From: Marsupella aquatica
Taxonomy: Eukaryota > Plantae > Marchantiophyta
Direction of reading: 5' to 3'
Assembly: GCA_973895155.1 (NCBI GenBank)
Contig: OZ316892.1
Coordinates: 31,055,802 to 31,119,801 of the forward strand
Length of the DNA stretch: 64,000 nt
The notes below the pieces were generated by a model. It was not told where the DNA came from. It was given only the letters and a program-made list of their open reading frames with translations, and ran no database searches. The position numbers and the translations under genes are program-made. Shown here one piece after another: positions 2,813 to 54,935 of the stretch; within the stretch, counting starts at the first letter, position 1; the number at the start of each line of letters is the position of its first letter.

Positions 2813-4515
2813 ACAGCAACATCCTCCATCCCAAGCATGCGGTGTACCTGAAGACTCAGGGATTTGAGCACCTCGCCTCTCTCCCCTGGAACACTTGCAG
2901 GTACTACGGGGAGGACATGACAGAATTCGTCAAGAATTATGACGACGTACGTCAACAGACTCGGCTGCGGGGAAGGAATATGTCCCTCACAGAAGAACGG
3001 CTCAAGATGATCTTCGGGTTACCCGAAGGTGACCATCGAGTCGAATCACGGGCTCCCGGGGGCAAGGGGGCCAAGTACCAATCTTCAAGTTTTCCCTCAG
3101 AGGGATCAGTAGACAACGGGTTCGTGATGAGGACCTGCCTCATGCCCGAGATAGCTGAGCGGCTGGAGTTCCAGAGGTACGCTCTCCACTTGATGGAACC
3201 CCGGGGGGAGATCTCCGCCGCCCAGGTCATCCAGGTCGAGAACTATCGACCTAGGAAGTGGGCGTCGTACTTCGCTAAGAAATTCCATGAAGAGATGGAG
3301 CGGCGAAGGAAGACGCTGTACATTGGCGGGAAGGCGTATTTCGCTAGCCACATCGAAATCATTCTTGAGTGGTATGCCCGGTTTGATCGACGAACCCTTC
3401 CCCGCCTCAACGTTACAAAGCTGGTCCCAGCTAGGTGGGTTTTTCCGGCATTGGAGAGACGGCCCCAACCCGAGGCCCGAAGTCCAGTGGACACGCCAGC
3501 TTCACCCACCCCACCTCCACAAATAGCTGTAATCGTAACCGAGGAGGCGCCGGAGGGGTCGGTCGTCGCAACCGTTGGTGCGACCCAACTAGCCGGGCTA
3601 AGTACAGAAGTTGGTACGGCAGAGGTCTTACCCGAACCCGGGCCTCCCAAGGACCCGCCGGTGGCAATTCCGGAGAACCGGACATCGCTGCAGGAGGATA
3701 CTCCGGCCCCTTCCAACGTTATGTCCCCAGGGCTGGACGTCACTGCCCCGGCCCCTGCGCGTGTTGATGTCTGCCCGTGCCCAAATCCGGACAGGCACAA
3801 CTTGGACCACCCGGAACTCTTCGTACAGGGTACGTTTCTGAACGGGCTTCTGGGAGATTTCTCTCATCAAATTGCCCGGGATACCGGGGAGTTCACGGCT
3901 CGGAAGGTAGCCTGTTTCTTCAATCAGGAGTTGGTTGCCGCCGTAAAGGCAGGGCGGGCCCAGTCGGAGGCCCTTCAGAGGATAGAGCGGTACCGGGAGG
4001 AGTCCGTGTACCTAAAGAACGAAGTGGCGGCTCAAGAGGCTGAGCTTCTGCAACTACGACCCAAGGTTGCAGCCGCCGATGAGTTGTTAGCAAAGGCGTA
4101 CGCTCTTACCGCCCTAGCCGAACAGGCCAAAGCTGGGAACGAGGCCGAGATTACACGACTCCGGAACCAGATTGACAGTTTGAAGAAACAAGCTGTCACC
4201 TGGCAGAAAGACCTGGAGGAGGCCGAGGAGCAAGCCCAGCGGGACGCGACGGAGATAGCCACGCTGCAGGCCGAGATGGCGCGGCTCCAAACCGAGGCCG
4301 AGAAGTAGGACCAGCTGGCGAGTAAACTGGCGAGCGACGCCCAGCAGCTGGAGGAGGCATGTCAAGAGGCAGCAGAGGAGACGGACGCGGCGAGGCGAGA
4401 GAACGAATCTCTGCTGGACCAGGTCCAGCTCCTCAAAGCAGACAATGACAGGCTTCGAAGGCAGCAGGATGGCCGTTCCCATTCGGGCGGCTCTGGCAAG
4501 CGTGCCATGCATTAG
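2813..4515 (+). pseudogene. disrupted copy of the family-A LTR-encoded ORF
   Basis: Same protein as 39869-42529 from SNILHPKH onward; N-terminus displaced by copia; CAG>TAG nonsense at 4306-4308; natural stop at 4513-4515. Confidence 0.9.
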
Positions 4516-5414
4516 CGGCGGAGTAGGAATAGATTAGGATTAGGATTGGCTTAGTCAGGCTCTTGGGACAGGCACCTGCCTTAGGTACGGCAGCGCTGCC
4601 CTGCTGTCCAGCCTGCGTAGATTAGGATCTTCTAATAAGACACAGCCGTTTTCCGGCCTGACTGTCAGCTTAGTTAGGACCTTGGTCAGCGAATCTTCGG
4701 CGGGAGGACGCCCCGTTCCTCGGCTCTTAGTATTTAGTGCACCCCTCGGTAGAGGCAGGGGGGGTTTTTAGTTTCAGAGTCGGACATCCGCGGGACATGC
4801 GGGGAGTCCCGACCTCTAGGAATGACAGAGTACCAAGGGGAGGGGGTAGGACTAAGCTTGCCGGGCGAGTGCGGAGCCGGGCTCCGTTGTAGTGTGCACC
4901 CTTGGCCTTGAACCTGTGCATTCCAGGGCTGTCGTGTCAACTAAGTGTACGCATATGTTCCCTTTGTAGTAAAAATCCTTTCCCATCATTTTTCCTTCGT
5001 GTAAATCGAGATTGTATGCATGTGTGCGCATATGTGTGGGGGTTTCTCGTATATGGGTGGCAGCGCCGGGCCGAACGCACTACCCGAGACGTGCACAGGG
5101 TGCAGCCTGCGGGTAAGTGGTTGCGAGCACGGGTTGAGGACCTGTATCATCGAATCCGGATCGAAGGCGGACAGCACGAAGGCTTAGAAGCCCTTAAGCC
5201 GGGGTCGATCCTACTATCGACTAAGGTACGTTCCGGCGGCGGAACACAAACCATACCTAGGAGGTGTCCGTATTTAGCAATATGCGCACTTAGCGCTAGT
5301 TTACGAGAATAAGGTGCATTACGTGCTTCCCTTCCTGCCCGAACCCTCAGATTTACGAGGGATGTGCCCGTCTAAGCTGAAGTCTGAGTTAAGGCCGAAG
5401 CCTACGACGTGACA
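2813..5414 (+). mobile_element. gypsy family-A LTR, 3' portion (3' LTR or solo LTR), split by the copia insertion
   Basis: Near-identical to 30706-33310 and 40827-43429; ends CGTGACA; followed by ATCAA rather than the PBS. Confidence 0.95.
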
Positions 5415-8400
5415 ATCAACCTAAGGAGGGTATGAGCAACGTCAATCAAGCGGCACATTTTTGGGGATGCCTGTTCGAACGGGCAACTGAGTACATCAAG
5501 ACTTACGAGGACGAGGAGTCAGAAAGGGCAGCTCGAGAACGGCAGGAGCTCGCTCGATTGTGGGAGCTGCAGAAGACGGCTTTCTTAGGAGGCGAACTCA
5601 TCAAGGACGAGTTCCTGTGGACGCCTACTTCCAATCAACTCGACGATCTTCTGTTTTGCAAAGACAGCGTCGTCGGCATCCGAGAGGCCATCAAGAACTG
5701 CAACGACATACACTGGGAATTAAAGGGTAGCACGGAAAGGTGGACCCAGGCAACGGTGCTAGGAGAAACCTCCACGGCAGCAGAGATGAAGAGGAAGGGA
5801 GCCGTCAACGATGAAGCCACCCCGGCAAAAAGAACGAGGTCGACGGCACCAAAGAAGCCAGCCAAGCAGCAGAGCAGGAGGCAGGGAGAAGCCGAAGAGG
5901 AGGAGGTCGATCCCATCAAGGCCATTCCAACCAGGGATGACACCTGGAAGGGCTGGGCGGCAACCCTACCGGTGGAGGTGCAACTACATTTTGCACGGGA
6001 GGAGGATGCATGCTTTACGGCCATGCAGACCAAGAAGTACCAAGGCTTCATGGCCGGATCCGGCTTGGAGGCCTTTGTAAGATTACCATGGCTGAAGCCG
6101 GAGGTACCGGAGTCAGACCTATTAGAATTCGTGGGGTCATGGGAACCCGAGACCAATTGCACGAGGATATATGGGAAGGATTTCTATCTTACTCCCAAGG
6201 TGATTGCCGAAGTGTTTGGCTTGCCGATGGGCAATAAGACCAAAGTTGATACCAGGAAGACCTTGCCTGACAAGGAGTTCCGGTCGTTCCCCGGGCCATC
6301 AACGAAGAATGGCTTCTTCCGGAACACCTGCACCAACCCGCACATAGGAGAGATGATCGACTTCTTGCGGGTGACCATGCATTGTAACTTGCCGAGGGCA
6401 GAGATCGGCAAGGCACAGGTCTATCTGGCAGAAAGGCCAGACCCAAGCCGGGACTACAACGGGTACCTCCTCAACCAATTGAAGAAGATCTTAAAGGAGG
6501 AGCAGCAGGTAATCGGCATGGGGAGCGTGTCGCGGCTTGGCTATCACATGCCGCTGTTGTGCCGGTATGCCAGAGGTCAGACTTTTGCCCCGGTACTTCC
6601 CCTGCAGGTAAGGGCACCCGAGGAAGCTCCAACGCCGAGGCCGTTGGCTGAGAAGCCTCAACCACCTGTTAGTCCTACGATCGAGCAGGTGTTTAGGCCC
6701 AGGAAGGAAGACTTGCCGATGCAGCAACCAGGCATGCAGAGTCTGCTGAAACTACTGGAGAAAGAAAAGAAATCGGCATCGGCAACAACAACGGCAACGG
6801 CAACAATGCAGGACACTACTACAGAGGTAGGCCTACACCGGCTCACAAGAGAAAACCCCTTTGCTGGAGACAAGGAGAGAATCAGGCCGGAATCCAAGCC
6901 AGGTGTTCGAATGTACGTGGGAACCTCAAGCTCCAAATCTGAGGCAGAATTGCCTGAAGCTCCTACCGAGGAAGAGGAGAGGGAGAAGCCGGAAATCCAA
7001 GAGGTAGAGGAGGCAGTGGAGGACTGCAGCCATGATAATTCCGGCTATGGGTCGGACCATCACGTTCCAGGAGTAAGGACCTGTGGCCGGTTTGTCCCCA
7101 CACTTCCAAGGGTAGTGCGAGGGGACCCCAACCAACAGAGTAGCCCTGAGTCTCCCCCACCAGATGTTGCTCCCCCGAGCTTCGACGGCATAAAACAAAC
7201 GGTGCAGGAATTTCAGGAGCGAATCAAGCAGGAGGAAGAGGCCGCCCTGGCTAAGGAAAAGGATTTACCAGGAGGAGATTGGCCGGAGGACATCAGGCGG
7301 CTAGCCGAAAAAGGAAGCAAACCTCTAGCCACGATTGAAGAGATCCGCAGGACGGCTTGGGAGCAGAGGCCACGATGGGCGATGCCGATCACTTCTACTT
7401 ACTCCACCTACGCTAAGAATAGAGCCATGGAGTATGGTGAGATGTGTGGGGAACTTGCGCTCGGCATCTTTGGAGAGGAGTTGGAGGTAGGACCCTTTTT
7501 CCATAGGGAACAGTTGGAGAAGCACCAATTAGAAGAAGCGGTGGCTTTAGAGAGAAGCAAGAAGGACGAGGTCATTCGGCGGCTTAGGAGGATGGGAGCC
7601 GAGATTGAAGATCTAAGGGCGGCCAAGAAAGCCCAAGATGAACTGCGGATTAAACGACATGAGCTGAACATCATGCAGGGGCAGTTGGACGCCGCGCAGG
7701 CTGATAATCAGAATATCAAGGATAAACTGACTCAGACACAGGAAGAGTTGGCCGACACGATCAAAGAAAGGGAAAAGTGGAAGCAAGAGCTGAAGAATAC
7801 AGAGGAGGCCCACATAACAGCCAACAGCCGGGCCATGGCGGAGACCCAAAGAAAGGAATGGGCGTTGAAAGGGGAGCTCGAGAAAATCCGCGGAGCCCTT
7901 GAGCAGAAGGAGGTCAAGTTAGGGAAATCCTATCAAGGGATTATGGCGCTGCAGCAGGAGCTTGCGTCCCTGACGGCCAGCTTCAAGGCCGACCTAAGGG
8001 AGAAGGACGAGATGCTCGAACAGACTTACGCCAAGATGAACCAGATGGAGTCTGTCATCATTGCAGAGCTCGACAAGGAGCTAAGAGCAACCCAGGAGGA
8101 GAAGGCTACCTTGAAGAAGGAATTGGAGGAAGCCCACAGGGAGCAGGAGGAGGCCAAAAACGAGCTGGAGGGGGCACGTAAGGACCTGGATGAAACCCAA
8201 GAGGAGTTGGAGGAAATCACGAGGAAGATGGAGAACCTACAGCGGCGGGCCGACAACCAAACAGAGCGGCTGAAGAAACAAGCCGCAGTATTTAAATGCT
8301 TAGCTGCAGCGGGTCCATCTCCTGTTGGGACAAACCAGTTACCAGGGGTGGTAATTGCCGAAGGACAAGCCGCGCCACCTGCACCAGTGCCGGAGGTAAG

Positions 8401-9517
8401 TGGGAAGGGGAAGGGACCAGCTGCCGAGCCACCAACGAAGAAGAAGCGGAAACCTTCAGGGTCAAGGAGTAATACGACTTCACAGGCCGTGGTGATCAAG
8501 GAGGTAGACCCAGCACCGACCCCAGACATGGTCACGGCTAGGGATCCAACTACCCTAAGGGAAGGGGAAGCCGAAGCCGTGAGAGTGGCTGAGGCCGAAG
8601 CCGTGGGTATTGCCGAGGCCGGTGTCGAGGCTGAAGCCGAAGGTGGACCCAGTCAGGCCGAGGGAGAGTTGACTCGGTCAAGGGCAGGTAATCTGTCAGT
8701 AGGCGGGCCAACGGCAGTGGCTGAGGAGGAAGTGTTGGGGGCGTCCATTGAGGATCCACCACCGGTGTCGTGACGGTGCAAGGGCGCCGTTCCTTTTAGG
8801 GAGGGCGGACGTGGAGGGAGGAGGCGTGAGTGGGCAGGGCGGGCACGGATCTCCACGTTTAGGATTAGGATCAGAACCAGGAGCGGCCCTGACACTTAGC
8901 TTAGTGGGATTGCGGTCCCACTGGTAGGAGCAACACTTGTGCTCCTGCCTTGCTGTACATAGGTAGATTCGGGCAAGTAGATTACTGTTAAGTAGATTAG
9001 GCTTACGATGCAAAGAATGGCGGATCCACTACCAGGATAAGTACCTGGGCAGCGGGGAGCTCAGGGCCTCTTCTTTAGCAAGTTTTTAGTTTGCACCAGC
9101 CGGGCTGGGATCAAGTAGTACGAGAAGCTCTCGGTTAGTCATACAGTGACCCTTGTGTATATTCATGTTTCCTCATGCCTAAGAGCTGAATAGAGTTGGC
9201 CTCACGGCTTAGTTCGCAGAACTTGTGTATGAGATGTACTGTTTGTATGGCAAGTGCATGGTATGACTCAGTCAGAATGAGTCATTTTGCTATTTGTGTG
9301 TCGCATTAACTTGTGTGAAGAGTGCCCACATCAACAGAAGGAAGGAAAGTAAGCAGGGGAGTGAGAGTTGGATGTGTCGAGCTGAGAGAGGTCTTAGCGG
9401 CTTAACCAAGCCTATTGGGGATCATTCCGGCGGCGGAATCCAAACATACCTAACAAGACGGAGGGGAAGACAGGGGAAGACAGGGGAAGGCCTATATTAG
9501 GCCGACTACGTATCTCA
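5415..9517 (+). mobile_element. probable LTR (3' part) of a diverged sister gypsy family B
   Basis: Carries a homologous ORF; shares post-stop TTAGGATTAGGAT, hairpin TTCCGGCGGCGGAA followed by CAAAC(C)ATACCTA, and a similar end (AGGCCGACTACGTATCTCA vs AGGCCGAAGCCTACGACGTGACA); no second LTR or gag-pol in the window. Confidence 0.65.
5432..8773 (+). CDS. 1113-aa PMD/Transposase_32-like domain plus long coiled-coil protein (family-B LTR ORF)
   Basis: Intact long ORF; GLEAFVRLPW..LLEFVGSW..TRIYGKDFYLTPKVIAEVFGLPMG..KNGF aligns by eye with family-A GFEHLASLPW..MTEFVKNY..TRLRGRNMSLTEERLKMIFGLPEG..DNGF; E/K/Q-rich heptad region about 7500-8280. Confidence 0.85.
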   Translation: MSNVNQAAHFWGCLFERATEYIKTYEDEESERAARERQELARLWELQKTAFLGGELIKDEFLWTPTSNQLDDLLFCKDSVVGIREAIKNCNDIHWELKGSTERWTQATVLGETSTAAEMKRKGAVNDEATPAKRTRSTAPKKPAKQQSRRQGEAEEEEVDPIKAIPTRDDTWKGWAATLPVEVQLHFAREEDACFTAMQTKKYQGFMAGSGLEAFVRLPWLKPEVPESDLLEFVGSWEPETNCTRIYGKDFYLTPKVIAEVFGLPMGNKTKVDTRKTLPDKEFRSFPGPSTKNGFFRNTCTNPHIGEMIDFLRVTMHCNLPRAEIGKAQVYLAERPDPSRDYNGYLLNQLKKILKEEQQVIGMGSVSRLGYHMPLLCRYARGQTFAPVLPLQVRAPEEAPTPRPLAEKPQPPVSPTIEQVFRPRKEDLPMQQPGMQSLLKLLEKEKKSASATTTATATMQDTTTEVGLHRLTRENPFAGDKERIRPESKPGVRMYVGTSSSKSEAELPEAPTEEEEREKPEIQEVEEAVEDCSHDNSGYGSDHHVPGVRTCGRFVPTLPRVVRGDPNQQSSPESPPPDVAPPSFDGIKQTVQEFQERIKQEEEAALAKEKDLPGGDWPEDIRRLAEKGSKPLATIEEIRRTAWEQRPRWAMPITSTYSTYAKNRAMEYGEMCGELALGIFGEELEVGPFFHREQLEKHQLEEAVALERSKKDEVIRRLRRMGAEIEDLRAAKKAQDELRIKRHELNIMQGQLDAAQADNQNIKDKLTQTQEELADTIKEREKWKQELKNTEEAHITANSRAMAETQRKEWALKGELEKIRGALEQKEVKLGKSYQGIMALQQELASLTASFKADLREKDEMLEQTYAKMNQMESVIIAELDKELRATQEEKATLKKELEEAHREQEEAKNELEGARKDLDETQEELEEITRKMENLQRRADNQTERLKKQAAVFKCLAAAGPSPVGTNQLPGVVIAEGQAAPPAPVPEVSGKGKGPAAEPPTKKKRKPSGSRSNTTSQAVVIKEVDPAPTPDMVTARDPTTLREGEAEAVRVAEAEAVGIAEAGVEAEAEGGPSQAEGELTRSRAGNLSVGGPTAVAEEEVLGASIEDPPPVS

Positions 9518-9591
9518 TGACCCGATGAAGGATCTGTCCAGTATATGTGTGTAAAATGTTAATAGTAGTAGTAGAAGGTTAGCAGCGTCCC

Positions 9592-12500
9592 ATGCCGCTA
9601 AGCCGCGGAAACGGCCTCGCCAAGCACGAAACCTGCGGGAATCGGCTTGAGCTGGGGGGTTTCTTGGGTTTAGGGAGCCATGGGACGCACCACACGCACC
9701 GTGCTGAAACTCTTGAAGCTGAGAAGATCAAGCAAGGTGGCTGCAAACCAGCCTCGTCTGCAATGCATTATCCCCACAAACAAGTTTCGTCCACCTCTTC
9801 CAGGAAGCGTCAACGAAGGGCTGCGCATAAGCTATCTGGCGCTAATGGCAGTCAATCACAAAGTTATCAAGCGACCCACTCTACAGGAAATGTTGACAGT
9901 GGGGAAACAAATCATGACCAGATGGTAGCTTTTCCCATTGCTCCGACAGGGACCACATCTTCAAAACAACTTCCATCGAATTCCAGAAGGCCACCCAGGA
10001 AGGTGTGGATTGTCAAACCCCCAAAGGCAAACGAATCACCCAACTCTCATCTGGCGCTAACGCAACCAGTTGTTGTTGAGGTGACTCCGTCTAATGCACC
10101 AATCCTACCAGCAAGGACGCTTTCGCCTCAACCTCCAAGTGATCAAGGGAATGTCACCATTCGCAAACGAAAGCTTTCTAAGGAATCTTCAGAAACAGAA
10201 TCTGACTCCCTCCCTACCATCTGTTCTTGGAGATTTCACTCCGCGGACGAAGCGCCCCCGGCTACTAGATCCGTCTGCTCCCAGCACCATTTACTGCCAT
10301 AAAATCCCCCCGACTCAACAGGCACAACCTGGATGGCCGAACTCTACGCAGGCTCCATAGAATCTACGCCTCCAGAGGAGCCTTCAAGGAGAATTTTGAC
10401 ATTTCATCTACTATCCTGCCTGGTTTTCCCCTGTCCGACCACGCCCCTGTTATTGCCAGGATCACCCCAATTGAGGCCACCAAACGATTCACGCAACATC
10501 TCATGAACGTTAGCCACCAAACCCAGTATGAATATCAAGCGCGGATCAAGCTATTGTGGGAGAAAGAAGAAACCCTCTGTGCTACGAAAGGGTTCTCAAC
10601 TGAAAGGGCTCTCGTTTGGTGTCTCGGCAAGGCTAGAAAATTTGATCGATGCTGGGGAAAGCGAAGGGCGGAGGAGCGGCGTAGGAGGGAGACAACGCTC
10701 CGAGACAGGCTCTCTCGAGCGCAACTATCCTGGAAATGGAACCTTCCGACGCAAATAGGCAGGATGAGGTGATAGACGCTGAAACTCTGTTACACGAATT
10801 TGAAAATGAAAAAGCACAATGGATGGACTACATCTTACAATCGCGGTGGATTGGCGAGGGGGACAAATGTTCTAGGCTCTTTTTTCGCACCTTCCGAGGT
10901 CTAGCCATGAACAATGAGATCACCCAATTGTTCAATAAGGAAGATGAAATTGTTCGGGATTGGGACTCAATGGCTATTACGGCCACCGAATTCTTTAAGG
11001 ACATCCTTGGTTCGACTACTGGCCCCTGGGAACAGCTTGCTCAAGTTCTTGAGTTACAAACTACCCACATTACGTTGGAAGACCGGAAGCTGCTGAACGC
11101 ACCTCTCATTGTGGATGAACTTGGTAAAGCTGCTGCTGCGGAGCAGACGGTGTTCCTATGGAATTCTTCGTGTCACAAGGGACGACAGTTGGGCCCTCCT
11201 TACACCGTGCACTCCTGCATGGAATGGCTGAAGGCATCTTCTCCCCCGAAATCACTCGGGGCTTCATTTTACTAGGTGGGAGGATGGTCCGTGTGATGTG
11301 CTGCCGGGAAACTGTGCTGTTGCCTATCGGAACCTGATTGCCAATCTCAGCAGCACCCCTGAGATGCACGAGGATCCGGACCAACGTACACCGGTCTTCA
11401 TGGAAGCTTCTCTCTGGGAATACTCCATTCAAAGAAAGTTTATCACCTCCCAGTGGCAACATTTTCATTGCACCTCTGTCATGCCCTATGCGAACCTTCA
11501 GAGTCATCAACGAGGTACTTTACAAAGCTGACAACAGTCCCCCTCCGGTGGGAACTATTCTGAACAGGGTAATTGTGAGGACGCATGGTGCCGCTGCAAC
11601 AAAAATCTTGCTCCGCATTGGGAGACCAGAGGGCTTGTTGGCACCGCTGCTGCTTTATGAATGGAAAGATGGTCGCCCATTCATGGATACCACCACTGCC
11701 CACATGAGGGAAATCCAGGGAACATCCCACGGGAACTTACACAAAGCACTCCACAAGTGGGCTATCAGGCTGCAGTGGAGACCCAATCCCCCTGTGTTAT
11801 GGCGGGACCTCTGGCGCCCTTTTCGTGCTGCTGCTGAGAACTGCTTCTTGTGGCAGCTGACCTATAGAACACCAGCCACCCAGCACTGGCATTTCCCAAA
11901 GCTACCACCTTCGGATGCCATCACCTGGTGTACCAGATGTGATCAGAATCAGCAGGAAGATATCGAACACTGCATCTGGGGCTGCCCCAGCTCGCAAATT
12001 GTCTGGAGATGGGGGAATCATCTCTTGTTGTTGTGTTCTTTCTCCAGAGGTAACTCTGTCCAGGTGCAGCCTGTACGTGTCTTTGTGGGCGCTACGTTAC
12101 CTGAGGAGTGGGACATACCTCACAAACTGTGGCTTATCCTCAGAGCGACCGTATGTTGGCATATCTGGAAAGATCGTAATATGCACCTCATGGAACACTC
12201 AATTCCTAATCCACAGGGGGTCATTCGAAAATCGTGGCATAGACTTGGGATCTACCTTAGACGGGACTGGGCCCGGCACCGTCACAAAATCAGGATTGGG
12301 AAACTCACCTTTGGGGATGCTCAACGAGAGATGTCTCATGACTTTGGTACTTGGGCCGACCTCTGGGAAATACACGAAGAGATCCTCCAGATTCCACCGG
12401 TTCCCCCACGTCCACCATGACCTATTCTCTGATCAGGTTCTGGAGTTGCACTGCAGGCAGATTGATAAGGTTCTTACCTTACCGCGGATCCACTGTTGGG

Positions 12501-12745
12501 AACCTCGCCGGAACCCGACAACTGGCCGGTCTTTAAGAGTGTGCTATTCTCACCTGTAGTTTCTAAATTGCTTGTTTAGTTTCCCATTCGGGGATCAGCT
12601 CCTTACCTGGTACCGGCCTCCCCGGTTGTTAGCACTTCGACCTTATTTGGTCCTCTGGGTTGGTGCCCCATGTGTGCCCCCCTTTATGTTTCTTTGGCAT
12701 TTTGAATGGAATTCATCTTGTTTTGATTGAGGCAAAAAAATAATG
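9592..12745 (+). mobile_element. degraded L1-like LINE with internal deletion of the RT core
   Basis: Endonuclease tail LSDHAPV near 10431; RWIGEGDKCSRLFF and LNAPLIVDEL; C-terminal zf-RVT (WRDLW..CFLWQL..CTRC..EDIEHCIWGC) in ORF 11338-12420; A-rich tail near 12734. Confidence 0.85.
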
Positions 12746-20449: not shown

Positions 20450-21855
20450 GTGGTGCTGACAGAGGAAGCCCAGAGCACTGAGTTCAATCAGAAGTTGACA
20501 AGACTAGCACTTTGGGTGGATGGTTTGTCAACCCCACTGTGGGTTAAGGCAAGGGCGAATTTGGTTACTCATTGCAGATTTCCATCTAATGTTAGTTATT
20601 GCACGAGAGATCGGTCTCAAGTCACTGCGAAAGGGATTGGTAGTAGGCATATGCATCCTGGTACCACGGGTCAAACAATTGCTATATTGAAAGATCGTCT
20701 ACAGCGAGGCATTGCTATAGACTCGTACACATATGTTAAAGTTCTGCAAATGTGCTTGCAACAGAAAGACCTTTCAGGAGCCAAGCAAATTCATGATTGC
20801 ATCATCGAGAGTGGAATTCACGAAAATCCATCTGTGGCAATCACGCTTTTGAATGTGTATATCAAATGCGGAGGTTTATCGGATGCACGTAGAGTGTTTG
20901 ATCAAATTCAGAAGAAGAGTGTTATTACTTGGACCAGCATGATGGTGGTATACTCTAGGAGTGATCATGCTGAATCTGCACTGAAAATTTTGAATCTAAT
21001 GCGCCAAGAAGGCGTGAAGCCGAATGAGATCACGTATCTGAGCATCCTGAATGCATGTTCAAGTCCATTAGCTCTCAATTGGGGAAAAGAAATTCATCAG
21101 GGTATTCGACATGCCGGCTCTGAATCAGACGTGCGTGTAGGGACTACTCTCGTACTGATGTACGCTAAATGTGGGTGCATCACCGAGGCAAGGAAAGCTT
21201 TTCAAAAGTTGACTAATCGAAATGTCATTACATGGAATGTTATGATTGGAGCATGTGCAGAACGTGGTGATGGTGTGGAAGCATATCGACTATTCCTGCA
21301 AATGACACGGGATGGCGTCAAACCAAATGCAATCACCTTTACGAGCATGCTGAATGCATCCGCATGTGATGGGGGTTTGGCATGGGTGAAGGACGTTCAT
21401 GGCCACGCTAGGAAAGCGGGACTGGAGTCAGAATTGCGTGTGGGCTCTACGCTGGTTCACATGTATGCAGAGAGTGGCAGGATAGGTCACGCCCGACTGG
21501 TTTTTGATAGAATGGAGAAACGCGACGTAATCACATGGAATGTAATGATAGGAGGACTTGCACAACATGGATGTGGACACGAAGCATATCGATTGTTTCT
21601 CCAAATGAGACAGGAAGGCTTTTGAACCAGATGCATTCACTTATGCGAGTATTCTGAATGCATTTGCAAGTGCGGGGGCTTTGGAGTGGGTGAAGGAGGT
21701 TCATGGCCATGCTAGAAATGCCGGACTGGAGTCAGATTTGCGTGTGGGCTCTGCGCTGGTTCACATGTATGAAGAGAGTGGCAGGATAGGTCGGCAAGCA
21801 CCAGAAAAACAAGTCTTCTCTCAAGATTTAGAGCTCTGGACTAGCCCAAGTTAAT
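20450..21855 (+). pseudogene. PLS-class pentatricopeptide repeat (RNA-editing-factor type) gene, frameshifted and truncated
   Basis: P-L-S triplets (SVITWTSMM, KPNEITYLSILNAC, DVRVGTTLVLMYAKCG, NVITWNVMIG); an extra T in GGCTTTTGAACCAGAT gives a stop at 21623-21625, while another frame continues EPDAFTYASILNAF; array breaks off near 21790 with no E/DYW domain. Confidence 0.9.
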
Positions 21856-28250: not shown

Positions 28251-29639
28251 ATTTAGGAGGAAAGGTTTCTGAGGTGTCGGGCTACGGCAGATTACTTCTT
28301 CGAATAGTTAGTAACGTATAACGGGTTATGAGTCCTTTAAGTAGCAGGTAAAGTCTGTCTGTCATGGGTTGTGCGTAGATCCCTTTTGTGGAGTTGCTCA
28401 GTGACCATGGCAGTTCCCACCCACACTATTGCTGGTGTGACTGTAATTCCATTTGTGCTGTAATGATGTTTGGGAGTCACCGGTTTTTTGCGACTGTGTT
28501 CTGCTGTGTCACCCTGTGTCGACATGACTACTTTCGGGAGGCACACTTGTGTTGTAGACTTCTACAAAGGTGGGATACACTCCAAAACTTCCATTCTGCG
28601 ATGTGCACAATGTGAAATAGAAGAGGAGAGGTACGCCCAGCAGCTGAAACTCATTTTTGCTATGAACTCATTATTTAACCACCCCCGTCGACCCTGAGCG
28701 ACGCTCGCCCGAAAAGCCCGTGGCTCCCCGCACGTTTTATTTATGTAGGATAGGATAACGCATCCCGAAAGGGTTGTGAGCTGGAGGGGTGTTTTGCAGC
28801 CCATCATCCACGTGAGGGTTCCATATGGTATTTAAGAAACATTTGCCTCACTTCTATATATGGACTTTACTGTGTTGTGAGGATGGGCCTAGCAAATTTC
28901 TGCCTATAAATTCCATACCAACATCTTATTGCTAATCTGAGCATTGTACCCGAGTTGTATTCAGATAAAGAGATGGATATATGGTTTAGGGTTAACGGTT
29001 GGGGGGCGCGGTGTGGAGGGCGCGATTGGGGGGCTTAGTGTGATGGGAGGGTGTGGTGCTGTTGTAACCTGGGTCGAAATTAGGACCTTGACCTTGTGTG
29101 TTTACAACGGAACCCTAAGTTGGGTTCGCCTTGTGTGTCTTGGTCAATGAACACATTCCCCCGGTAAATGCCAAAAATTTGCAATGGCCAAGTACAAGTT
29201 TTGAAATTGCAAATGGTCTGCAAAGAAAACGCTCAAATGCTCGGCAAACAGTACTCCTTCTTGAGATCAAAAGTCGTAGCCTGTGACGCCGCCGGTACGG
29301 CGGTTAATGAGTGATTCAGTCTAACTGCGCTCGGCACGCGCGTTAGGTGGGTCTTAGGCCGCTATTATTAGCATAATGACAGTATTTAGGTAATCATTAG
29401 GGGTAGGACATCATTAGGCAATAAGGGGGACCTCAGGTTCGGGCTGGCGGCGGGTCGCTATTCGCACACCCGGGTTATGAGCATGGAGTGGCCCCTCCCT
29501 CGGGTCCGTATAACGAACTTAAGGAAGCGGCCACTGACGCACGCTGACTCAGACCGATGGAGTGGCCGGTACACCACAAGCGTGAGCGGTTCAACCTATG
29601 GGCGTCGAGGAGACGTCGGGGATCGACAAGCCCTCAAAG

Positions 29640-29646
29640 TATAAAA
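29640..29646 (+). promoter_or_regulatory. TATA box (TATAAAA) of the 5' LTR
   Basis: Canonical TATAAAAGGGG, 108 bp upstream of the LTR-ORF ATG; identical copy at 39761-39767. Confidence 0.7.
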
Positions 29647-29747
29647 GGGGAGCCAACCCTTTGTAGTGCACCAGTCCATCAGTCCACGCGCCAGCTTCGA
29701 CCCCAGCTCTCTCGTTCTATCTAGGTCGCCACTACTATCTCCTCTGA

Positions 29748-32408
29748 ATGTCGCACACGATCCTCTCCAGCTCGGCCATTCGATTCTGGACGCAGTTCCT
29801 ATCTACCGGAAGGCACTTGGCCGATTCATTGAAACACGCCAACCCGCGCCGATACGAGATCGAACGCGAATACGAGAGAGCCATCCGCCTAGCAGGACGA
29901 CACCACTACGTCCTTAACTTTGACTACCCGTCTCAGAGCGAGCTTTACCGACCAGCTGAGGTATCTGGGTACTTCTTTGACGGAGACAAATATATCGGGT
30001 TCTGGGAAGCATTGCTTCGGCTTCCGGACGAGGTCTTCAATATCCCGGGTACAATCGACCTGCAGCGACATCACTTCGACCACATCCCTGCCCAGGTTCG
30101 GGCAGTCATTAACGGCGAGTCCAGTACCAACCGTTCGACAAGGGCGTCCGCACTCGCTTCGGAGAACTTCTACCAGCACCTACAGAGCTTCATGGGAACT
30201 CGGCCATCAACCAACATGACCAACTCAGCCGGACCCGTACCCGTACCCGTACCCGTACCCATACCCGTACCCGTGCCCATGCAACCTCAGCTTCAGCTTC
30301 AGCCTCAGCCGCAGCCTAGCCAAACCCCACCACCTATCACCCAGCCAGCACAGGTACGCTCCGTCATCAACGCGGTGGATCTTAGCGATGACGACGAGGC
30401 TACCCCACCCTTGACCAGGCGGCCCAGAGGAACAAGCGCTCGGGGGGCCGACACTATACCGTCCCCACCCCCTGCTCTGACCCCAGGAGCGGCCCCAGCA
30501 GACAACATGGTGACCGTGGCCGCCCCGGGCCCGTTACCAACCGCAGTGGCACTCCCCAGGCCCGATCGGGAGGATGGGGAAGTATCACCTTCCCCGAGTC
30601 AGTCACGGGGAAAGAAGAGAAAGGAATCCGCCAGTGCATCCGGGTTACCGTTAGCCACGGTAGCCGTAGCCAAGGTAACGATGCATCGCATGGGGGAAAA
30701 CGTTCACAGCAACATCCTCCATCCCAAGCATGCGGTGTACCTGAAGACTCAGGGATTTGAGCACCTCGCCTCTCTCCCCTGGAACACTTGCAGGTACTAC
30801 GGGGAGGACATGACAGAATTCGTCAAGAATTATGACGACGTACGTCAACAGACTCGGCTGCGGGGAAGGAATATGTCCCTCACAGAAGAACGGCTCAAGA
30901 TGATCTTCGGGTTACCCGAAGGTGACCATCGAGTCGAATCACGGGCTCCCGGGGGCAAGGGGGCCAAGTACCAATCTTCAAGTTTTCCCTCAGAGGGATC
31001 AGTAGACAACGGGTTCGTGATGAGGACCTGCCTCATGCCCGAGATAGCTGAGCGGCTGGAGTTCCAGAGGTACGCTCTCCACTTGATGGAACCCCGGGGG
31101 GAGATCTCCGCCGCCCAGGTCATCCAGGTCGAGAACTATCGACCTAGGAAGTGGGCGTCGTACTTCGCTAAGAAATTCCATGAAGAGATGGAGCGACGAA
31201 GGAAGACGCTGTACATTGGCGGGAAGGCGTATTTCGCTAGCCACATCGAAATCATTCTTGAGTGGTATGCCCGGTTTGATCGACGAACCCTTCCCCGCAT
31301 CAACGTTACAAAGCTGGTCCCAGCTAGGTGGGTTTTTCCGGCATTGGAGAGACGGCCCCAACCCGAGGCCCGAAGTCCAGTGGACACGCCAGCTTCACCC
31401 ACCCCACCTCCACAAATAGCTGTAATTGTAACCGAGGAGGCGCCGGAGGGGTCGGTCGTCGCAACCGTTGATGCGACCCAACTAGTCGGGCTAAGTACAG
31501 AAGTTGGTACGGCAGAGGTCTTACCCGAACCCGGGTCTCCCAAGGACCCGCCGGTGGCAATTCCGGAGAACCGGACATCGCTGCAGGAGGATACTCCGGC
31601 CCCTTCCAACGTTATGTCCCCAGGGCTGGACGTCACTGCCCCGGCCCCTGCGCGTGTTGATGTCTGCCCGTGCCCAAATCCGGACAGGCACAACTTGGAC
31701 CACCCGGAACTCTTCGTACAGGGTACGTTTCTGAACGGGCTTCTGGGAGATTTCTCTCATCAAATTGCCCGGGATACCGGGGAGTTCATGGCTCGGAAGG
31801 TAGCCTGTTTCTTCAATCAGGAGTTGGTTGCCGCCGTAAAGGCAGGGCGGGCCCAGTCGGAGGCCCTTCAGAGGATAGAGCGGTACCGGGAGGAGTCCGT
31901 GTACCTAAAGAACGAAGTGGCGGCTCAAGAGGCTGAGCTTCTGCAACTATGACCCAAGGTTGCAGCCGCCGATGAGTTGTTAGCAAAGGCGTACGCTCTT
32001 ACCGCCCTAGCCGAACAGGCCAAAGCTGGGAACGAGGCCAAGATTACACGACTCCGGAACCAGATTGACAGTTTGAAGAAACAAGCTGTCACCTGGCAGA
32101 AAGACCTGGAGGAGGCCGAGGAGCGAGCCCAGCGGGACGCGACGGAGATAGCCACGCTGCAGGCCGAGATGGCGCGGCTCCAAATCGAGGCCGAGAAGCA
32201 GGACCAGCTGGCGAGTAAACTGGCGAGCGACGCCCAGCAGCTGGAGGAGGCATGTCAGGAGGCAGCAGAGGAGACGGACGTGGCGAGGCGAGAGAATGAA
32301 TCTCTGCTGGACCAGGTCCAGCTCCTCAAAGCGGACAATGACAGGCTTCGAAGGCAGCGGGATGGCCGTTCCCATTCGGGCGGCTCTGGCAAGCGTGCCA
32401 GGCATTAG
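29748..32408 (+). pseudogene. 5'-LTR copy of the LTR-encoded ORF with one nonsense mutation
   Basis: Colinear with 39869-42529; CGA>TGA at 31950-31952 splits it into 734-aa and 143-aa ORFs. Confidence 0.93.
30234..30318 (+). repeat. coding hexamer microsatellites (CCCGTA)n and (CAGCYT)n encoding PV and QP/QL linkers
   Basis: Directly visible; second copy at about 40355-40439. Confidence 0.85.
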
Positions 32409-33322
32409 CGGCGGAGTAGGAATAGATTAGGATTAGGATTGGCTTAGTCAGGCTCTTGGGACAGGCACCTGCCTTAGGTACGGCAGCGCTGCCCTGCTGT
32501 CCAGCCTGCGTAGATTATGATCTTCTAATAAGACACAGCCGTTTTCCGGCCTGACTGTCAGCTTAGTTAGGACCTTGGTCAGCGAATCTTCGGCGGGAGG
32601 ACGCCCCGTTCCTCGGCTCTTAGTATTTAGTGCACCCCTCGGTAGAGGCAGGGGGGGGGGTTTTTAGTTTCAGAGTCGGACATCCGCGGGACATGCGGGG
32701 AGTCCCGACCTCTAGGAATGACAGAGTACCAAGGGGAGGGGGTAGGACTAAGCTTGTCGGGCGAGTGCGGAGCCGGGCTCCGTTGTAGTGTGCACCCTTG
32801 GCCTTGAACCTGTGCATTCCAGGGCTGTCGTGTCAACTAAGTGTACGCATATGTTCCCTTTGTAGTAAAAATCCTTTCCCATCATTTTTCCTTCGTGTAA
32901 ATCGAGATTGTATGCATGTGTGCGCATATGTGTGTGGGTTTCTCGTATATGGGTGGCAGCGCCGGGCCGAACGCACTACCCGAGACGTGCACAGGGTGCA
33001 GCCTGCGGGTAAGTGGTTGCGAGCACGGGTTGAGGACCTGTATCATCGAATCCGGATCGAAGGCGGACAGCACGAAGGCTTAGAAGCCCTTAAGCCGGGG
33101 TCGATCCTGCTATCGACTAAGGTACGTTCCGGCGGCGGAACACAAACCATACCTAGGAGGTGTCCGTATTTAGCAGTATGCGCACTTAGCGCTAGTTTAC
33201 GAGAATAAGGTGCATTACGTACTTCCCTTCCTGCCCGAACCCTCAGATTTACGAGGGATGTGCCCGTCTAAGCTGAAGTCTGAGTTAAGGCCGAAGCCTA
33301 CGACGTGACATAGCCTTTGTTT

Positions 33323-33340
33323 TGGCGCTAGATGGAGGGG
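33323..33340 (+). promoter_or_regulatory. primer binding site TGGCGCTAGATGGAGGGG
   Basis: TGG-initiated 18-mer 12 nt after the 5' LTR; cognate tRNA not determined. Confidence 0.75.
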
Positions 33341-33433
33341 GCACTCTACATATCGTAGAGGGGAGACATGTGCGTATTCACCTAGGCAGGATACATCAGG
33401 ACGTAGTACTAACCATTGCATTTATATGAGTAA

Positions 33434-36400
33434 ATGCCCGTCACTCGTTCTCAAGCAGCTTACTTGAGGAGATTGACCAGCGAACGAGAAAGTGCAACCA
33501 CAACAAGCTCCGACTCGTCGGGCTCGGAGGACTCGCAATCGTCCCGACGTATGAACATACCCCCGGGATCTTCGGGGTCCGGTTCGACCGGCCCTGCTGC
33601 GGTTCCACCACCACCACCACCACCACCACCACCTATGGCAGCCGCTCCACCGGTGGCCCGCGCTGCTCAGGCGCCTCCACAAATATCGCAACGATCGCGA
33701 TTTCATTATCGACCTTTCAAAGGGCGTCATGGGGATGATCCGGATGAATGGTTGGATGAGTTTGAAGCCACTACTAAAGCTAATGGGGAAGACGCCATTA
33801 AGCTAACCGTCCTCCCGGGAGTAATGCGGGGAGAAGCTCGTCCATGGTACAACTCGTTACCACCCGGGACTACCTGGGCACAATTCCAAGCTGCATTGCT
33901 GCAGGAGTTTCGTGCCATTGGATCAGAACAACGTTCTCTATTAAAGATTGGCCAGCTTCGCATGGGAAAAAAAGAGTCCCTGCGGAAGTTCATTCAGAAG
34001 TTTCAGAAACTTGCGGCCAAGATCCGGCACAGGCCAGGAGACGCGCTCCAGCTTACATGGTTCCTTCATGGTTTGCCCACGAATATGCAATTCTGGGTAC
34101 GCCAGAATAATCCAATTTCAATGCAGGCGGCCATAGCGTGCGCCGAAACTTACCGGGAGTCCACCTATAACTCCCGGCGGAGCCAGCGAGCACGCCGCAG
34201 GAAGGGTAAGTACGAAACCTTCAGTGACAGTGACTCCGAATCGGACGACAAGAGGAAGAAGAAACGGAAGAAGAAGAAGAAACGGAAGAAGAAGAAGAAA
34301 CATCGTTCGACCTCGTCCAGCTCTGAGACGGAATCCAGTTCGGATTCAGCTTCAAGCATCGGATCCTCTACCTCCAGTTCATCAGGAAGTGACTTGGAGA
34401 GCGAAAGCCGGAGCAAAAAGAAGAAGAGACGAGTGAAGAAGGAGGGGAAGATTAAACCCCGGGCGTGAAGAACGATACCAGATCCGAAGGCTGCCGAAGC
34501 AGACAAGCTGAACGAAATCACGGATCGACTCAAAGCACTGTCAGTACATCTTGCGGAGAAGCCGGTGGAGAAGAAGAAGCCATCTGAGATTCGAGCCCAT
34601 GCGTGGTGTTCAAAGTGCTTCCAATCCGGCCATGTGGTGCAGGAATGCCCAAGGTGGAAGAACCGAGTTCACCAAGTAGAGTTGGATGATGTTGACAACC
34701 TGGGCCCCGAATCGGAGTCCACGGAGTATTTCTTTGAGGACCCTCCTGATTCCGTGTACCAGATTTCAACGGTTGGTCCGCGTAATTTAGCGGGTAGAAC
34801 TGCGTACCCCTACCCAAGTAATGGCCGGAGTTTCCAGGTTATCAGTAACCCGAGCATCCCTCCTAAGCCAGGGATTTGGCGGTCCCCGGTTTGTTACAAC
34901 TGTGAAAAGTCAGGACACTTTGCGAGGGAATGCACCGAACCAAGACGTCAGGGAGATGGCCGAGGCACCCCACTATGTCAAGTTTGCAAAACGGAGGCTC
35001 ATTCCACGGCCAACTGTCCGTTGGTAATCGCTGCTCGAACGAGTGCGGCTAGACCAGTCACGAGCGATGCAGTCGTCCAAATGATTGCTGTAGAATGGCA
35101 AGATGACAACACCGAGTGGGTGAATCTGGTGGACGTGGCGGAACACCCTAATCCATTGGATGAGGCCGAGTGCTACCGAGTGTCGACAAGGGCCGAACGG
35201 AAGGAAGAAAAGACGGAGGAGAAACGGAGGAAAAAGCAAGATACTACTCCAGTGCAGCCAGCGATAAATATACCCCCGGAAAAGGACGATGACTACCGAC
35301 GGGACGACCCGAAGCTATTTTTCCCCCGCATCGAAGAATTGGTAAAGAAACAGCTGGAGGCTTACGAAGCTCGGGAATACCAGAAGGCAATCGATAAGGA
35401 CATCAAAGCAGCCGAGACAGCCCGGCGTCAGGAGCAAGAAAAGCAAGATAAACAAGAGGAAGCCAAGCAGCAGCCAACGAAAGAAACAAAGGAGGACTAT
35501 GATATTAAGGAGGACGTGAAGAGTTGCCCGGTTACAGCGACGGTGGGGCAACTGCTGCAGAACAACCCACAGTACAGACGACAACTGAGGGAGTTGCTCA
35601 TGGGTCACCGAAGGAGAAGACTACCCCGAGTTGGGAGTGCGGACTGCAACATGATATGCGAGGACCTTGGAGCGCCGGACATCTCGATCGAAATTAATAA
35701 CTGTACCATCAAGATGGTCCTTGTAGACGGAGGAGCGGGAGTCAACATCATGACTGAAGAAACGTCAGTCAAGTTAGGATACCTCACGTATCAACCCACG
35801 GCCCGAGCTATCAGATTAGCAAACGGGGCAAGGGTCCTCCCATTAGGCACGCTCACACGAGTGCTCACTCTGGTGGGAGGGGTAGAGTTCTATCTCAACT
35901 TCTTAGTCATGAGGCCGGTTTGTCCCTCCTCTTATCCGGTTCTTCTGGGCAGGCCGTGGCTGTACGGTGGCCGTGTAGTCACGGATTGGGGAAAGAAGGA
36001 GCTACGGTTCGGGGAACCCACCGTACGGGTATCCTGGGCAATGGACGATTATCAGGGAGAAACCCCACAAGGACCCGAGGAATATGATTCGGAGACCTCG
36101 GAGGAAGAGGAACTCAATATGATCGAACTCATCTCGTCCCTATCCGAGGAAGATGTCTTCGGAGTTGAAGCAACCCGAGAAACACATCTCCTAAATTACC
36201 CGAGGCTGCCATTGAGTCCACCCCAAGTACATCTACCGTCGGGGATGAGGAAACGCACGAACAACTCGTCGAGACGGAGGACACGGCTCCAGCTAAGCAG
36301 GGAGCCGTGGCTACTCCTTCCATTTCAGAGCCTTGTAACCATGAACCAGCCCAACAACCGCCTGAGGCCGAAAACTCGAGACCGAGACATAAAAAGCGAG

Positions 36401-36439
36401 TCTCATGGGATCCGTCCATTCCGCAATTGGAGGAAGTAA
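33434..36439 (+). CDS. gag: gag-protease, one in-frame TGA at 34466-34468
   Basis: MPVTRSQ start; capsid (PFKG..DPDEWL..MRGEARPWY); Lys/Ser-rich tract; three CCHC knuckles; protease LVDGGAGVNIM..LLGRPWL; ORFs 33434 and 34565 share a frame. Confidence 0.9.
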
Positions 36440-39435: not shown

Positions 39436-42400
39436 TTCAGTCTAACTACGCTCGGCACGCGCGTTAGGTGGGTCTTAGGCCGCTATTATTAGCATAACGA
39501 CAGTATTTAGGTAATCATTAGGGGTAGGACATCATTAGGCAATAAGGGGGACCTCAGGTTCGGGCTGGCGGCGGGTCGCTATTCGCACACCCGGGTTATG
39601 AGCATGGAGTGGCCCCTCCCTCGGGTCCGTATAACGAACTTAAGGAAGCGGCCACTGACGCACGCTGACTCAGACCGATGGAGTGGCCGGTACACCACAA
39701 GCGTGAGCGGTTCAACCTATGGGCGTCGAGGAGACGTCGGGGATCGACAAGCCCTCAAAGTATAAAAGGGGAGCCAACCCTTTGTAGTGCACCAGTCCAT
39801 CAGTCCGCGCGCCAGCTTCGACCCCAGCTCTCTCGTTCTATCTAGGTCGCCACTACTATCTCCTCTGAATGTCGCACACGATCCTCTCCAGCTCGGCCAT
39901 TCGATTCTGGACGCAGTTCCTATCTACCGGAAGGCACTTGGCCGATTCATTGAAACACGCCAACCCGCGCCGATACGAGATCGAACGTGAATACGAGAGA
40001 GCCATCCGCCTAGCAGGACGACACCACTACGTCCTTAACTTTGACTACCCGTCTCAGAGCGAGCTTTACCGACCAGCTGAGGTATCTGGGTACTTCTTTG
40101 ACGGAGACAAATATATCGGGTTCTGGGAAGCATTGCTTCGGCTTCCAGACGAGGTCTTCAATATCCCGGGTACAATCGACCTGCAGCGACATCACTTCGA
40201 CCACATCCCTGCCCAGGTTCGGGCAGTCATTAACGGCGAGTCCAGTACCAACCGTTCGACAAGGGCGTCCGCACTCGCTTCGGAGAACTTCTACCAGCAC
40301 CTACAGAGCTTCATGGGAACTCGGCCATCAACCAACATGACCAACTCAGCCGGACCCGTACCCGTACCCGTACCCGTACCCATACCCGTACCCGTGCCCA
40401 TGCAACCTCAGCTTCAGCTTCAGCCTCAGCCGCAGCCTAGCCAAACCCCACCACCTATCACCCAGCCAGCACAGGTACGCTCCGTCATCAACGCGGTGGA
40501 TCTTAGCGATGACGACGAGGCTACCCCACCCTTGACCAGGCGGCCCAGAGGAACAAGCGCTCGGGGGGCCGACACTATACCGTCCCCACCCCCTGCTCTG
40601 ACCCCAGGAGCGGCCCCAGCAGACAACATGGTGACCGTGGCCGCCCCGGGCCCGTTACCAACCGCAGTGGCACTCCCCAGGCCCGATCGGGAGGATGGGG
40701 AAGTATCACCTTCCCCGAGTCAGTCACGGGGAAAGAAGAGAAAGGAATCCGCCAGTGCATCCGGGTTACCGTTAGCCACGGTAGCCGTAGCCAAGGTAAC
40801 GATGCATCGCATGGGGGAAAACGTTCACAGCAACATCCTCCATCCCAAGCATGCGGTGTACCTGAAGACTCAGGGATTTGAGCACCTCGCCTCTCTCCCC
40901 TGGAACACTTGCAGGTACTACGGGGAGGACATGACAGAATTTGTCAAGAATTATGACGACGTACGTCAACAGACTCGGCTGCGGGGAAGGAATATGTCCC
41001 TCACAGAAGAACGGCTCAAGATGATCTTCGGGTTACCCGAAGGTGACCATCGAGTCGAATCACGGGCTCCCGGGGGCAAGGGGGCCAAGTACCAATCTTC
41101 AAGTTTTCCCTCAGAGGGATCAGTAGACAACGGGTTCGTGATGAGGACCTGCCTCATGCCCGAGATAGCTGAGCGGCTGGAGTTCCAGAGGTACGCTCTC
41201 CACTTGATGGAACCCCGGGGGGAGATCTCCGCCGCCCAGGTCATCCAGGTCGAGAACTATCGACCTAGGAAGTGGGCGTCGTACTTCGCTAAGAAATTCC
41301 ATGAAGAGATGGAGCGGCGAAGGAAGACGCTGTACATTGGCGGGAAGGCGTATTTCGCTAGCCACATCGAAATCATTCTTGAGTGGTATGCCCGGTTTGA
41401 TCGACGAACCCTTCCCCGCATCAACGTTACAAAGCTGGTCCCAGCTAGGTGGGTTTTTCCGGCATTGGAGAGACGGCCCCAACCCGAGGCCCGAAGTCCA
41501 GTGGACACGCCAGCTTCACCCACCCCACCTCCACAAATAGCTGTAATCGTAACCGAGGAGGCGCCGGAGGGGTCGGTCATCGCAACCGTTGATGCGACCC
41601 AACTAGCCGGGCTAAGTACAGAAGTTGGTACGGCAGAGGTCTTACCCGAACCCGGGTCTCCCAAGGACCCGCCGGTGGCAATTCCGGAGAACCGGACATC
41701 GCTGCAGGAGGATACTCCGGCCCCTTCCAACGTTATGTCCCCAGGGCTGGACGTCACTGCCCCGGCCCCTGCGCGTGTTGATGTCTGCCCGTGCCCAAAT
41801 CCGGACAGGCACAACTTGGACCACCCGGAACTCTTCGTACAGGGTACGTTTCTGAACGGGCTTCTGGGAGATTTCTCTCATCAAATTGCCCGGGATACCG
41901 GGGAGTTCATGGCTCGGAAGGTAGCCTGTTTCTTCAATCAGGAGTTGGTTGCCGCCGTAAAGGCAGGGCGGGCCCAGTCGGAGGCCCTTCAAAGGATAGA
42001 GCGGTACCGGGAGGAGTCCGTGTACCTAAAGAACGAAGTGGCGGCTCAAGAGGCTGAGCTTCTGCAACTACGACCCAAGGTTGCAGCCGCCGATGAGTTG
42101 TTAGCAAAGGTGTACGCTCTTACCGCCCTAGCCGAACAGGCCAAAGCTGGGAACGAGGCCGAGATTACACGACTCCGGAACCAGATTGACAGTTTGAAGA
42201 AACAAGCTGTCACCTGGCAGAAAGACCTGGAGGAGGCCGAGGAGCGAGCCCAGCGGGACGCGACGGAGATAGCCACGCTGCAGGCCGAGATGGCGCGGCT
42301 CCAAACCGAGGCCGAGAAGCAGGACCAGCTGGCGAGTAAACTGGCGAGCGACGCCCAGCAGCTGGAGGAGGCATGTCAGGAGGCAGCAGAGGAGACGGAC

Positions 42401-54471: not shown

Positions 54472-54611
54472 GGTAGGGCTCTGCAGGTCCCAGTGTGATC
54501 AAAATGGCCCGCACAAACTTCAATTACGCTTTCAAAAACCCTTTTAAATAACCCTAAACGTTTTGTCGACCAAGATGTGCTTATCGCCACGCCTTGGAGC
54601 CCCAAAACGAG

Positions 54612-54935
54612 TGAGAGAATGATAGTCCCGTCTACTCACTCTTGTCAAACCTTGCTTGCGCATCACCCTGAAAGAGCGCGATAGAATCACAGTCCCTTCT
54701 ACTCACTCTGTTGAACCTCGGATGCCCACAACCCTGAAAGAGCGCGAGAGAATCATAGTCCCTTCTACTCACTCTGTCAAACCTCGGATGCCCACAACCC
54801 TGAAACAGCACGGCAAAATGATAGTCCCATCTCCTCACTCTTGTCGAAACTCGTCCCACAGCCCAGAAAGAGCGAGAGAGATTGATAGTCCCAGCTCCTC
54901 ACTCTTGACGAACCTCGCTTGCCCACAAACCCTAC
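54612..54935. repeat. about 66-bp tandem repeat, 5 units, immediately upstream of the 54471 start codon
   Basis: Units GAGAGAATSATAGTCCCTTCTACTCACTCT(T)GTCAAACCTCG..CCCACAACCCTGAAAGAGCGC visible at about 54612, 54680, 54745, 54811 and 54874. Confidence 0.9.

Follow-up and report, generated by a model that had tools for sequence, protein, structure and literature searches.

Sequence-specific anti-silencing is known for DNA transposons of dicots, whereas the role of the extra open reading frames (ORFs) of plant long terminal repeat (LTR) retrotransposons is open. According to the available excerpts of the sources cited here, VANC21 binds a 9-base motif that often forms tandem repeats of the non-coding DNA of its element, and demethylates that element (PMC5735166). 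VANC proteins, described as dicot-specific, resemble the host protein MAIN and have a coiled coil that is predicted to mediate self-assembly, and the Athila domain likewise (PMC13547354). PMD-C resembles the DUF1985 of VANC and counters Polycomb silencing (10.1101/2024.09.27.615353), PMD-A is encoded by gypsy elements across angiosperms, the direction of transfer being left open (PMC5418596), and descriptions of extra ORFs place them ahead of gag-pol or behind it (PMC7264820; PMC6317226). Here we describe a gene in 64,000 nucleotides of transposon-rich DNA of the liverwort Marsupella aquatica (assembly GCA_973895155.1, contig OZ316892.1, forward strand, positions 31,055,802 to 31,119,801); this whole stretch is called the window, and coordinates count from its first letter. 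The gene belongs to a repeat that we call family B, a high-copy and probably gypsy element, and encodes a protein of 1113 aa whose central domain matches VANC21 in its predicted fold, which is the new observation reported here. It probably lies inside the LTR, as in family A, a full gypsy element of the same window with an ORF within both of its LTRs.

Accessory genes in or overlapping an LTR are familiar from retroviruses, namely sag of mouse mammary tumour virus, nef of human immunodeficiency virus and bel of foamy viruses. Their proteins are unrelated to that of the B ORF, and family B differs in that its coding sequence of about 3.3 kb makes up most of the repeat. The likeness to VANC21 of Arabidopsis VANDAL21 (PDB 9LNJ/9LNK; DUF1985) lies in the central fold, in the status of a transposon accessory protein and in a predicted coiled coil. 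However, VANC21 belongs to a Mutator-like DNA transposon, whereas B is an LTR element (family A has gag-pol) whose ORF is intronless, carries an additional N-terminal FW domain and occurs in a non-flowering host. VANC proteins are dicot-specific in the excerpt of PMC13547354, and no tandem target array was seen in the B trailer, the DNA between ORF and repeat end. PMD-A (PF10536), ATHILA ORF-1 (PF03078) and Transposase_32 (PF20167) are alike as extra sense ORFs of gypsy elements, here non-chromovirus ones, and are the nearest Atlas features. PMD is reported to be structurally like VANC DUF1985 (10.1101/2024.09.27.615353), yet B has no Pfam match, and the survey of PMD-A covers only angiosperms in the excerpt at hand (PMC5418596). 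Ogre elements have LTRs of 1.9-6.5 kb, several kilobases as here, but their extra ORFs are internal and their LTRs are treated as non-coding in the available part of that source (PMC6431247). We found no report of LTR-internal genes in plants or of a VANC fold in bryophyte retrotransposons in literature searches with thin coverage of subscription journals.

The family B protein and its relatives

The model of the central domain, built from an alignment of 22 rows, has a predicted local distance difference test score (pLDDT) of 82.9 and a predicted template modelling score of 0.81. VANC21 bound to DNA was the top row in Foldseek (E 0.018, probability 0.99), followed by a row at E 1.7. VIA gave VANC21 Z 8.4 against 75 chains and, against 48,161 chains, Z 8.7 with an rmsd (root-mean-square deviation) of 4.1 over 206 aligned residues, the only other row having Z 2.2. 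VANC21 again came first in VIA with a model of aa 1-395 (Z 8.5); the two models are not independent, as most of their alignment rows are common to both. The alignment with VANC21 covers about 200 residues (chain residues 289-533) at 8% identity. Among the basic residues that are conserved in the domain are R275, H304, R313 and K327. The predicted fold places the central domain with VANC/PMD/DUF1985 proteins, and the modelled protein is VANC-like without being a VANC member, because its carrier is of another kind and a sequence match is absent. The Atlas features of the B and A proteins lie near the Transposase_32, ATHILA, DUF1985 and PMD clusters, with scores of 0.81-0.89 that fall below the 0.9 line and serve as leads only. 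Searches of PDB sequences were blank, the viral fold library gave one weak row (E 0.04), and the FW domain had no specific fold match, its hits being generic helical ones (Z at most 6.5).

The remainder of the B protein holds a Pro/Glu-rich linker (aa 393-600, simple scan), the predicted coiled coil, the KKKRK cluster given in Table 1 and further basic clusters at aa 120 and aa 133. A transmembrane segment, expected of env-like ORFs, is absent in both proteins, the top 19-residue hydropathy being 0.82 in B and 1.13 in A.

At the DNA level, no significant coding-strand match joins B to A, the best BLASTN hit (E 0.026) being on the opposite strand. The central domains (B202-381, A327-509) share 28.6% identity (E 2.6e-19). 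When the N-termini of A, P0016 and P0023 are combined into a profile, the first 118 residues of B reach 17.7 bits with it, a value attained by none of 2000 shuffles, while the FW domains of B and A compared pairwise are not significant (125/2000 shuffles). Seventeen of the 20 rows of a HMMER scan are plausible relatives; P0005, P0018 and P0020 were dropped as spurious hits to repeat proteins, and the folding alignment left out P0006, P0007, P0011 and P0017. Two homologues are named as Calypogeia fissa (liverwort protein set; CAM6122807.1 and CAM6090539.1 are from this species), P0016 being from Calypogeia, and homologues with the same N-terminal domain come from the liverwort protein set and from metagenome and Logan contigs. 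Both the FW and the central domain are present in P0016 and in P0023/P0026, and P0026 also has the linker and the coiled coil. Shared-word searches for homologues added nothing new, and no loci were found when viral, metagenome and prokaryote contigs were scanned for the B end, the shared trailer motif, A pol, P0026 and B. No branch was starred in a tree of 11 domain rows, and the tree was not used.

The differences among B copies are skewed as under purifying selection. Those considered are the 40 with the best support among 477 differences, together with 12 indels out of 18, which is not a random sample. The ORF holds 34 of the differences. Synonymous ones number 16, where 9.9 would be expected (P 0.019), and aa 165-392 contains none of the 34, where 7 were expected (P 4e-4). 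All 12 indels lie at 8700 or beyond, with P 1e-4 even if the other six were all in the ORF.

These results bear out much of a preliminary description of this DNA. It had reported an intact ORF of 1113 aa, which runs from ATG to stop, a coding region without obvious DNA similarity to family A, as BLASTN confirms, and a protein laid out as in family A, of which the FW domain, central domain, Pro/Glu linker and heptad-rich, proline-free stretch were all recovered. Its proposal of a second family, diverged from A but with the gene laid out alike, is supported. Its view of the gene as old and selected is likewise supported by the 28% core identity between A and B, by the homologues in a liverwort protein set and in metagenome and Logan contigs, and by the skewed variants and indels. 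As to a feature of a whole lineage, the support extends to two families only; the decayed relative C described below has the central domain but neither the FW domain nor the motif. The fold, which ties the gene to a known class of plant transposon proteins, had been missed.

Ends of the family B repeat and position of the gene

Contigs from the public runs X1, X3, X5 and X6 were used; X8 and X9 do not cover the end. The summed depth in X1 falls about 9,000-fold, from 585,424 at 9690-9693 to 66 beyond 9706, and that in X5 drops from 59,562 to 47 across 9694. Contigs running past 9694 enter differing flanks (37 + 18 in X1, 14 + 14 in X5; agreement 0.37-0.42). The majority lines of these loose ends were compared, by hand count, with the 17 letters of the family A primer-binding site (PBS, 33323-33339). 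Four letters past the B end, 14/17 letters match in X1, 10/17 in X5, 11/17 in X3 and 4/17 in X6, as against 4/17 and 5/17 in control rows at 9695. The X1 match has P 1e-6, or 6e-4 after correction for 14 offsets and 36 rows, its length having been picked post hoc; the three rows after the discovery row give 25/51 when pooled (P 2e-4 to 3e-3). Since flank majority lines carry the family A PBS four letters on in three of the four runs, 9694 is an LTR end, and by this statistical signal some B copies run on into a PBS. No PBS stands behind the copy in the window; this copy is a 3' or solo LTR, because decayed LINE-like frames follow it. The preliminary description was right in placing an LTR end behind the gene, as the PBS signal indicates, but wrong about its position: the CA at 9517 is rejected, as depth stays high beyond it and drops only at 9694. 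Nor is 5415, the first position it gives, the start of the element, 5414 being the end of an inserted family A LTR; one X6 contig shows B extending upstream of 5415 in other letters. Nested insertions have displaced the 5' part of the B LTR out of the window. A 236-aa ORF at 9592-10302 spans the junction at 9694 and was discarded as a chance frame.

The mean depth of the trailer relative to the ORF is 1.21, 0.82, 0.98 and 0.46 in the four runs, with no step in these means. Among the 24 of 1330 loose-end rows that were listed there is no cluster of mixed flanks before 9694, restriction-site joints aside. The joints at 6060, 6358 and 7345 and the loose ends at 6057 and 9023 were set aside because they lie at GATC sites with partners at GANTC or CTNAG and are probable Hi-C ligation products. 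The distance from ORF stop to LTR end is 921 letters in B and 900 in A, and the shared trailer motif stands in the same order in both. Because no LTR start is seen between the ORF and 9694, the B ORF probably lies inside the LTR; such a placement is observed directly in A and is likely in B.

The motif common to the two trailers agrees in 26/29 letters (E 2e-5), and its 14-letter core is exact at 5231, 9425, 33127 and 43246. The other words shared by the trailers are short (E at least 0.04), so that of the family A LTR motifs said to be kept in the B trailer one is clear. The terminal hairpin has no Rfam match. No 6-8-mer is enriched above shuffles in the B trailer (the B leader lies outside the window), and one 6-mer is marginal in the A trailer (4/200 shuffles).

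Nested surroundings in the window

Table 1. Main features of the window, with strand and basis
Feature	Position	Strand	Basis
Family B: intact ORF of 1113 aa, ATG to stop	5432-8773	+	ORF listing; all 12 listed indels at 8700 or beyond
Family B: FW domain at the N terminus (about aa 1-112), a helical hairpin with a small alpha/beta part	5432-5767	+	profile test; model
Family B: VANC21-like globular domain, aa 166-395, predicted DNA-binding	5927-6616	+	pLDDT 82.9; Foldseek; VIA
Family B: predicted long coiled coil, aa 691-955	7502-8296	+	proline-free, rich in E/K/L/A, high heptad score (simple scan)
Family B: basic cluster KKKRK (aa 1003-1007), candidate nuclear localisation signal	8438-8452	+	
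Family B: visible 3' part of LTR (3' or solo)	5415-9694	+	continuous high depth in 4/4 runs, sharp end at 9694
Shared trailer motif, small hairpin; outer pair A-T in B, G-C in A	9425-9452	+	
Long terminal hairpin, B only (not in last 120 letters of A)	9575-9692	+	-63.3 kcal/mol, z -5.3, 0/200 shuffles
Terminal CA of family B LTR	9693-9694	+	depth collapse
Family A LTR, 3' part, inserted in B 17 letters before the B ATG	2813-5414	+	99% identity to 30706-33310 and 40827-43429
Full family A gypsy: gag, protease, reverse transcriptase, RNase H, integrase; ORF in both LTRs	29282-43429	+	
Relative C, decayed ORF of 995 codons, in-frame stops at codons 595 and 671	51484-54471	-	B-like

The LTRs of the full family A element are 4.03 kb long and 99.4% alike and have TG and CA as their ends. 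The element has a target duplication of 5 bp and a tRNA-type PBS at 33323, which we take to be that of tRNA-Asn. The LTR ORF is intact in the 3' copy (886 aa). A canonical TATA box (39761-39768) precedes the ATG of the LTR ORF by about 108 letters, a pyrimidine tract ending in AG stands directly before this ATG, and the pol frame extends 33 letters into the 3' LTR (39403-39435). If the ORF is in U3, the trailer would have to hold a second promoter. Between 5' LTR and PBS (33311-33322), the first 5 letters are identical to the target duplication. The PBS starts 12 letters past the LTR end, as against about 4 in B.

The family A LTR within B is itself interrupted by a copia element (281-2812, RVT_2) with an 18-nt tandem array in its LTR (2364-2574). 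B was inserted into decayed LINE-like frames (9695-12560) without a Pfam match, which, from their motifs, we take to be those of an L1-like long interspersed nuclear element (LINE). We infer the insertion order LINE, B, A, copia. In X1 the 9694 end is also joined to positions within B, which, together with the nesting of A in B, suggests clustered insertion.

Relative C matches B at 33.6% over 283 aa (E 1e-45) and is nearer to B than A is. No FW domain, trailer motif or LTR pair was seen for it within the window, and it shows that the gene is not always LTR-bound. Its ORF is preceded by 66-nt tandem repeats (54592-54917; whole region 51484-54917, minus strand), and such an array beside a gene of the VANC fold recalls the VANDAL target arrays. 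Elsewhere, a 606-aa ORF (46678-48498, minus strand) with a globular-looking N-terminal part and a coiled coil has no tblastn match to A, B or C and may be a transposon accessory gene. A fragment of a pentatricopeptide repeat gene that looks moss-like lies at 20651-21625, and a 315-aa coiled-coil ORF (60285-61232) has a 96-nt internal repeat and no Pfam match.

A possible anti-silencing role and its alternatives

By analogy with the characterised VANC and PMD proteins, we hypothesize, with about as much credence as doubt, that family B encodes an LTR-borne, nuclear, oligomeric DNA-binding protein that shields its own family from silencing. The LTR would express the intact gene inside the repeat, and the protein, predicted to enter the nucleus, would oligomerise via its predicted coiled coil, would bind a short motif in the element and thereby could loosen silencing by DNA methylation or Polycomb. 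Placed in the LTR, the gene would be present twice per element and survive in solo LTRs, which could supply the protein in trans.

Several points weigh against this interpretation. The fold match is moderate, given the low identity, the rmsd of about 4 and the Foldseek E-value, and Foldseek with the 395-residue model lists no VANC21. There is no Pfam match to PMD, ATHILA, Transposase_32 or DUF1985, and no VANC21 chain appears up to E 10. Moreover, a shared fold shows no function, as the host proteins MAIN/MAIL, which are needed for silencing, share the fold class in the available part of PMC5418596. Unlike in VANDAL targets, neither a tandem nor an enriched target motif stands out in the B trailer. 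The variant statistics rest on the best 40 of 477 differences and on 12 of 18 indels. As to the placement in the LTR, X6, one of four runs, lacks the PBS signal, the median depth of the trailer is about 1.5-fold that of the ORF in X1 and X3 and the loose-end rows considered are 24 of 1330, so that the trailer may hold an LTR start, and relative C has the central domain without a sign of an LTR. Paired B LTRs, a 5' end, a target duplication and gag-pol were not seen within the window.

An LTR gene with the VANC/PMD fold may also have another job, such as integration tethering, transcription activation or RNA binding, which we consider conceivable though rather unlikely. The same structural evidence fits it, the missing VANDAL-like tandem target array in the B trailer and the two hairpins, one small and conserved, the other long and terminal, speak for it, and so do the signs of clustered insertion in the X1 joints of the 9694 end and in the nesting of A in B. 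However, the one member of the fold with a solved structure is in complex with DNA according to the titles of PDB 9LNJ/9LNK, and the characterised members act on silencing in the excerpts available (PMC5735166; 10.1101/2024.09.27.615353). It is improbable that the B ORF belongs to the internal region as an ordinary extra ORF in sense orientation, situated, like Athila ORF-1, after pol and ahead of a short 3' LTR, with LTR placement restricted to A. Such ORFs usually lie there according to the available part of PMC7264820, the Atlas neighbours include Transposase_32 and ATHILA, the 5' end of B is outside the window, and the trailer has 1.5-fold the median ORF depth in two of four runs. The mean depth ratios, however, range from 0.46 to 1.21 and are not at least 2, mixed flanks before 9694 occur only at GATC, GANTC or CTNAG joints, and the near-equal trailers of B and A (921 and 900) have the motif in the same order.

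A still less probable case is a non-autonomous family B, with giant LTRs and little or no gag-pol, mobilised by A or by another gypsy element with the same primer. No B gag-pol is seen in the window, and the PBS and one trailer motif are common to B and A, but the DNA of the B LTR is otherwise unrelated to that of A and the terminal letters differ, which would argue against the integrase of A. That the ORF is a neutral frame, or a host gene captured in recent times, is largely refuted and deserves hardly any credence. Host genes of the fold class exist in flowering plants, as the excerpt of PMC5418596 has it, and C could be a host-like copy; yet the gene has no introns, it is carried by two families only 28% alike, its variants and indels show the skew expected under constraint, and C is broken.

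Returning to the anti-silencing reading, we tentatively suggest, with more doubt than confidence, that in a gypsy lineage of bryophytes the LTRs are built around an anti-silencing gene of the VANC fold, and every LTR, solo ones included, would then have both the switch and its target. Such a lineage would be an early-branching reservoir of the fold, and a retrotransposon origin of the VANC/PMD/ATHILA-ORF fold would then predate flowering plants, followed by domestication in hosts as MAIN/MAIL and by a return to DNA transposons through re-capture. Whether retrotransposons, too, use such a trick can be tested directly on a VANC-fold gene that is under constraint in high-copy LTR families outside the flowering plants. 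The gene also bears on the question of whether the PMD/VANC fold originated in transposons or in hosts. Annotation pipelines that seek extra ORFs only between LTRs would miss such a gene. With the gene placed in the LTR, solo LTRs, usually held to be dead ends, would still encode a trans-acting protein.

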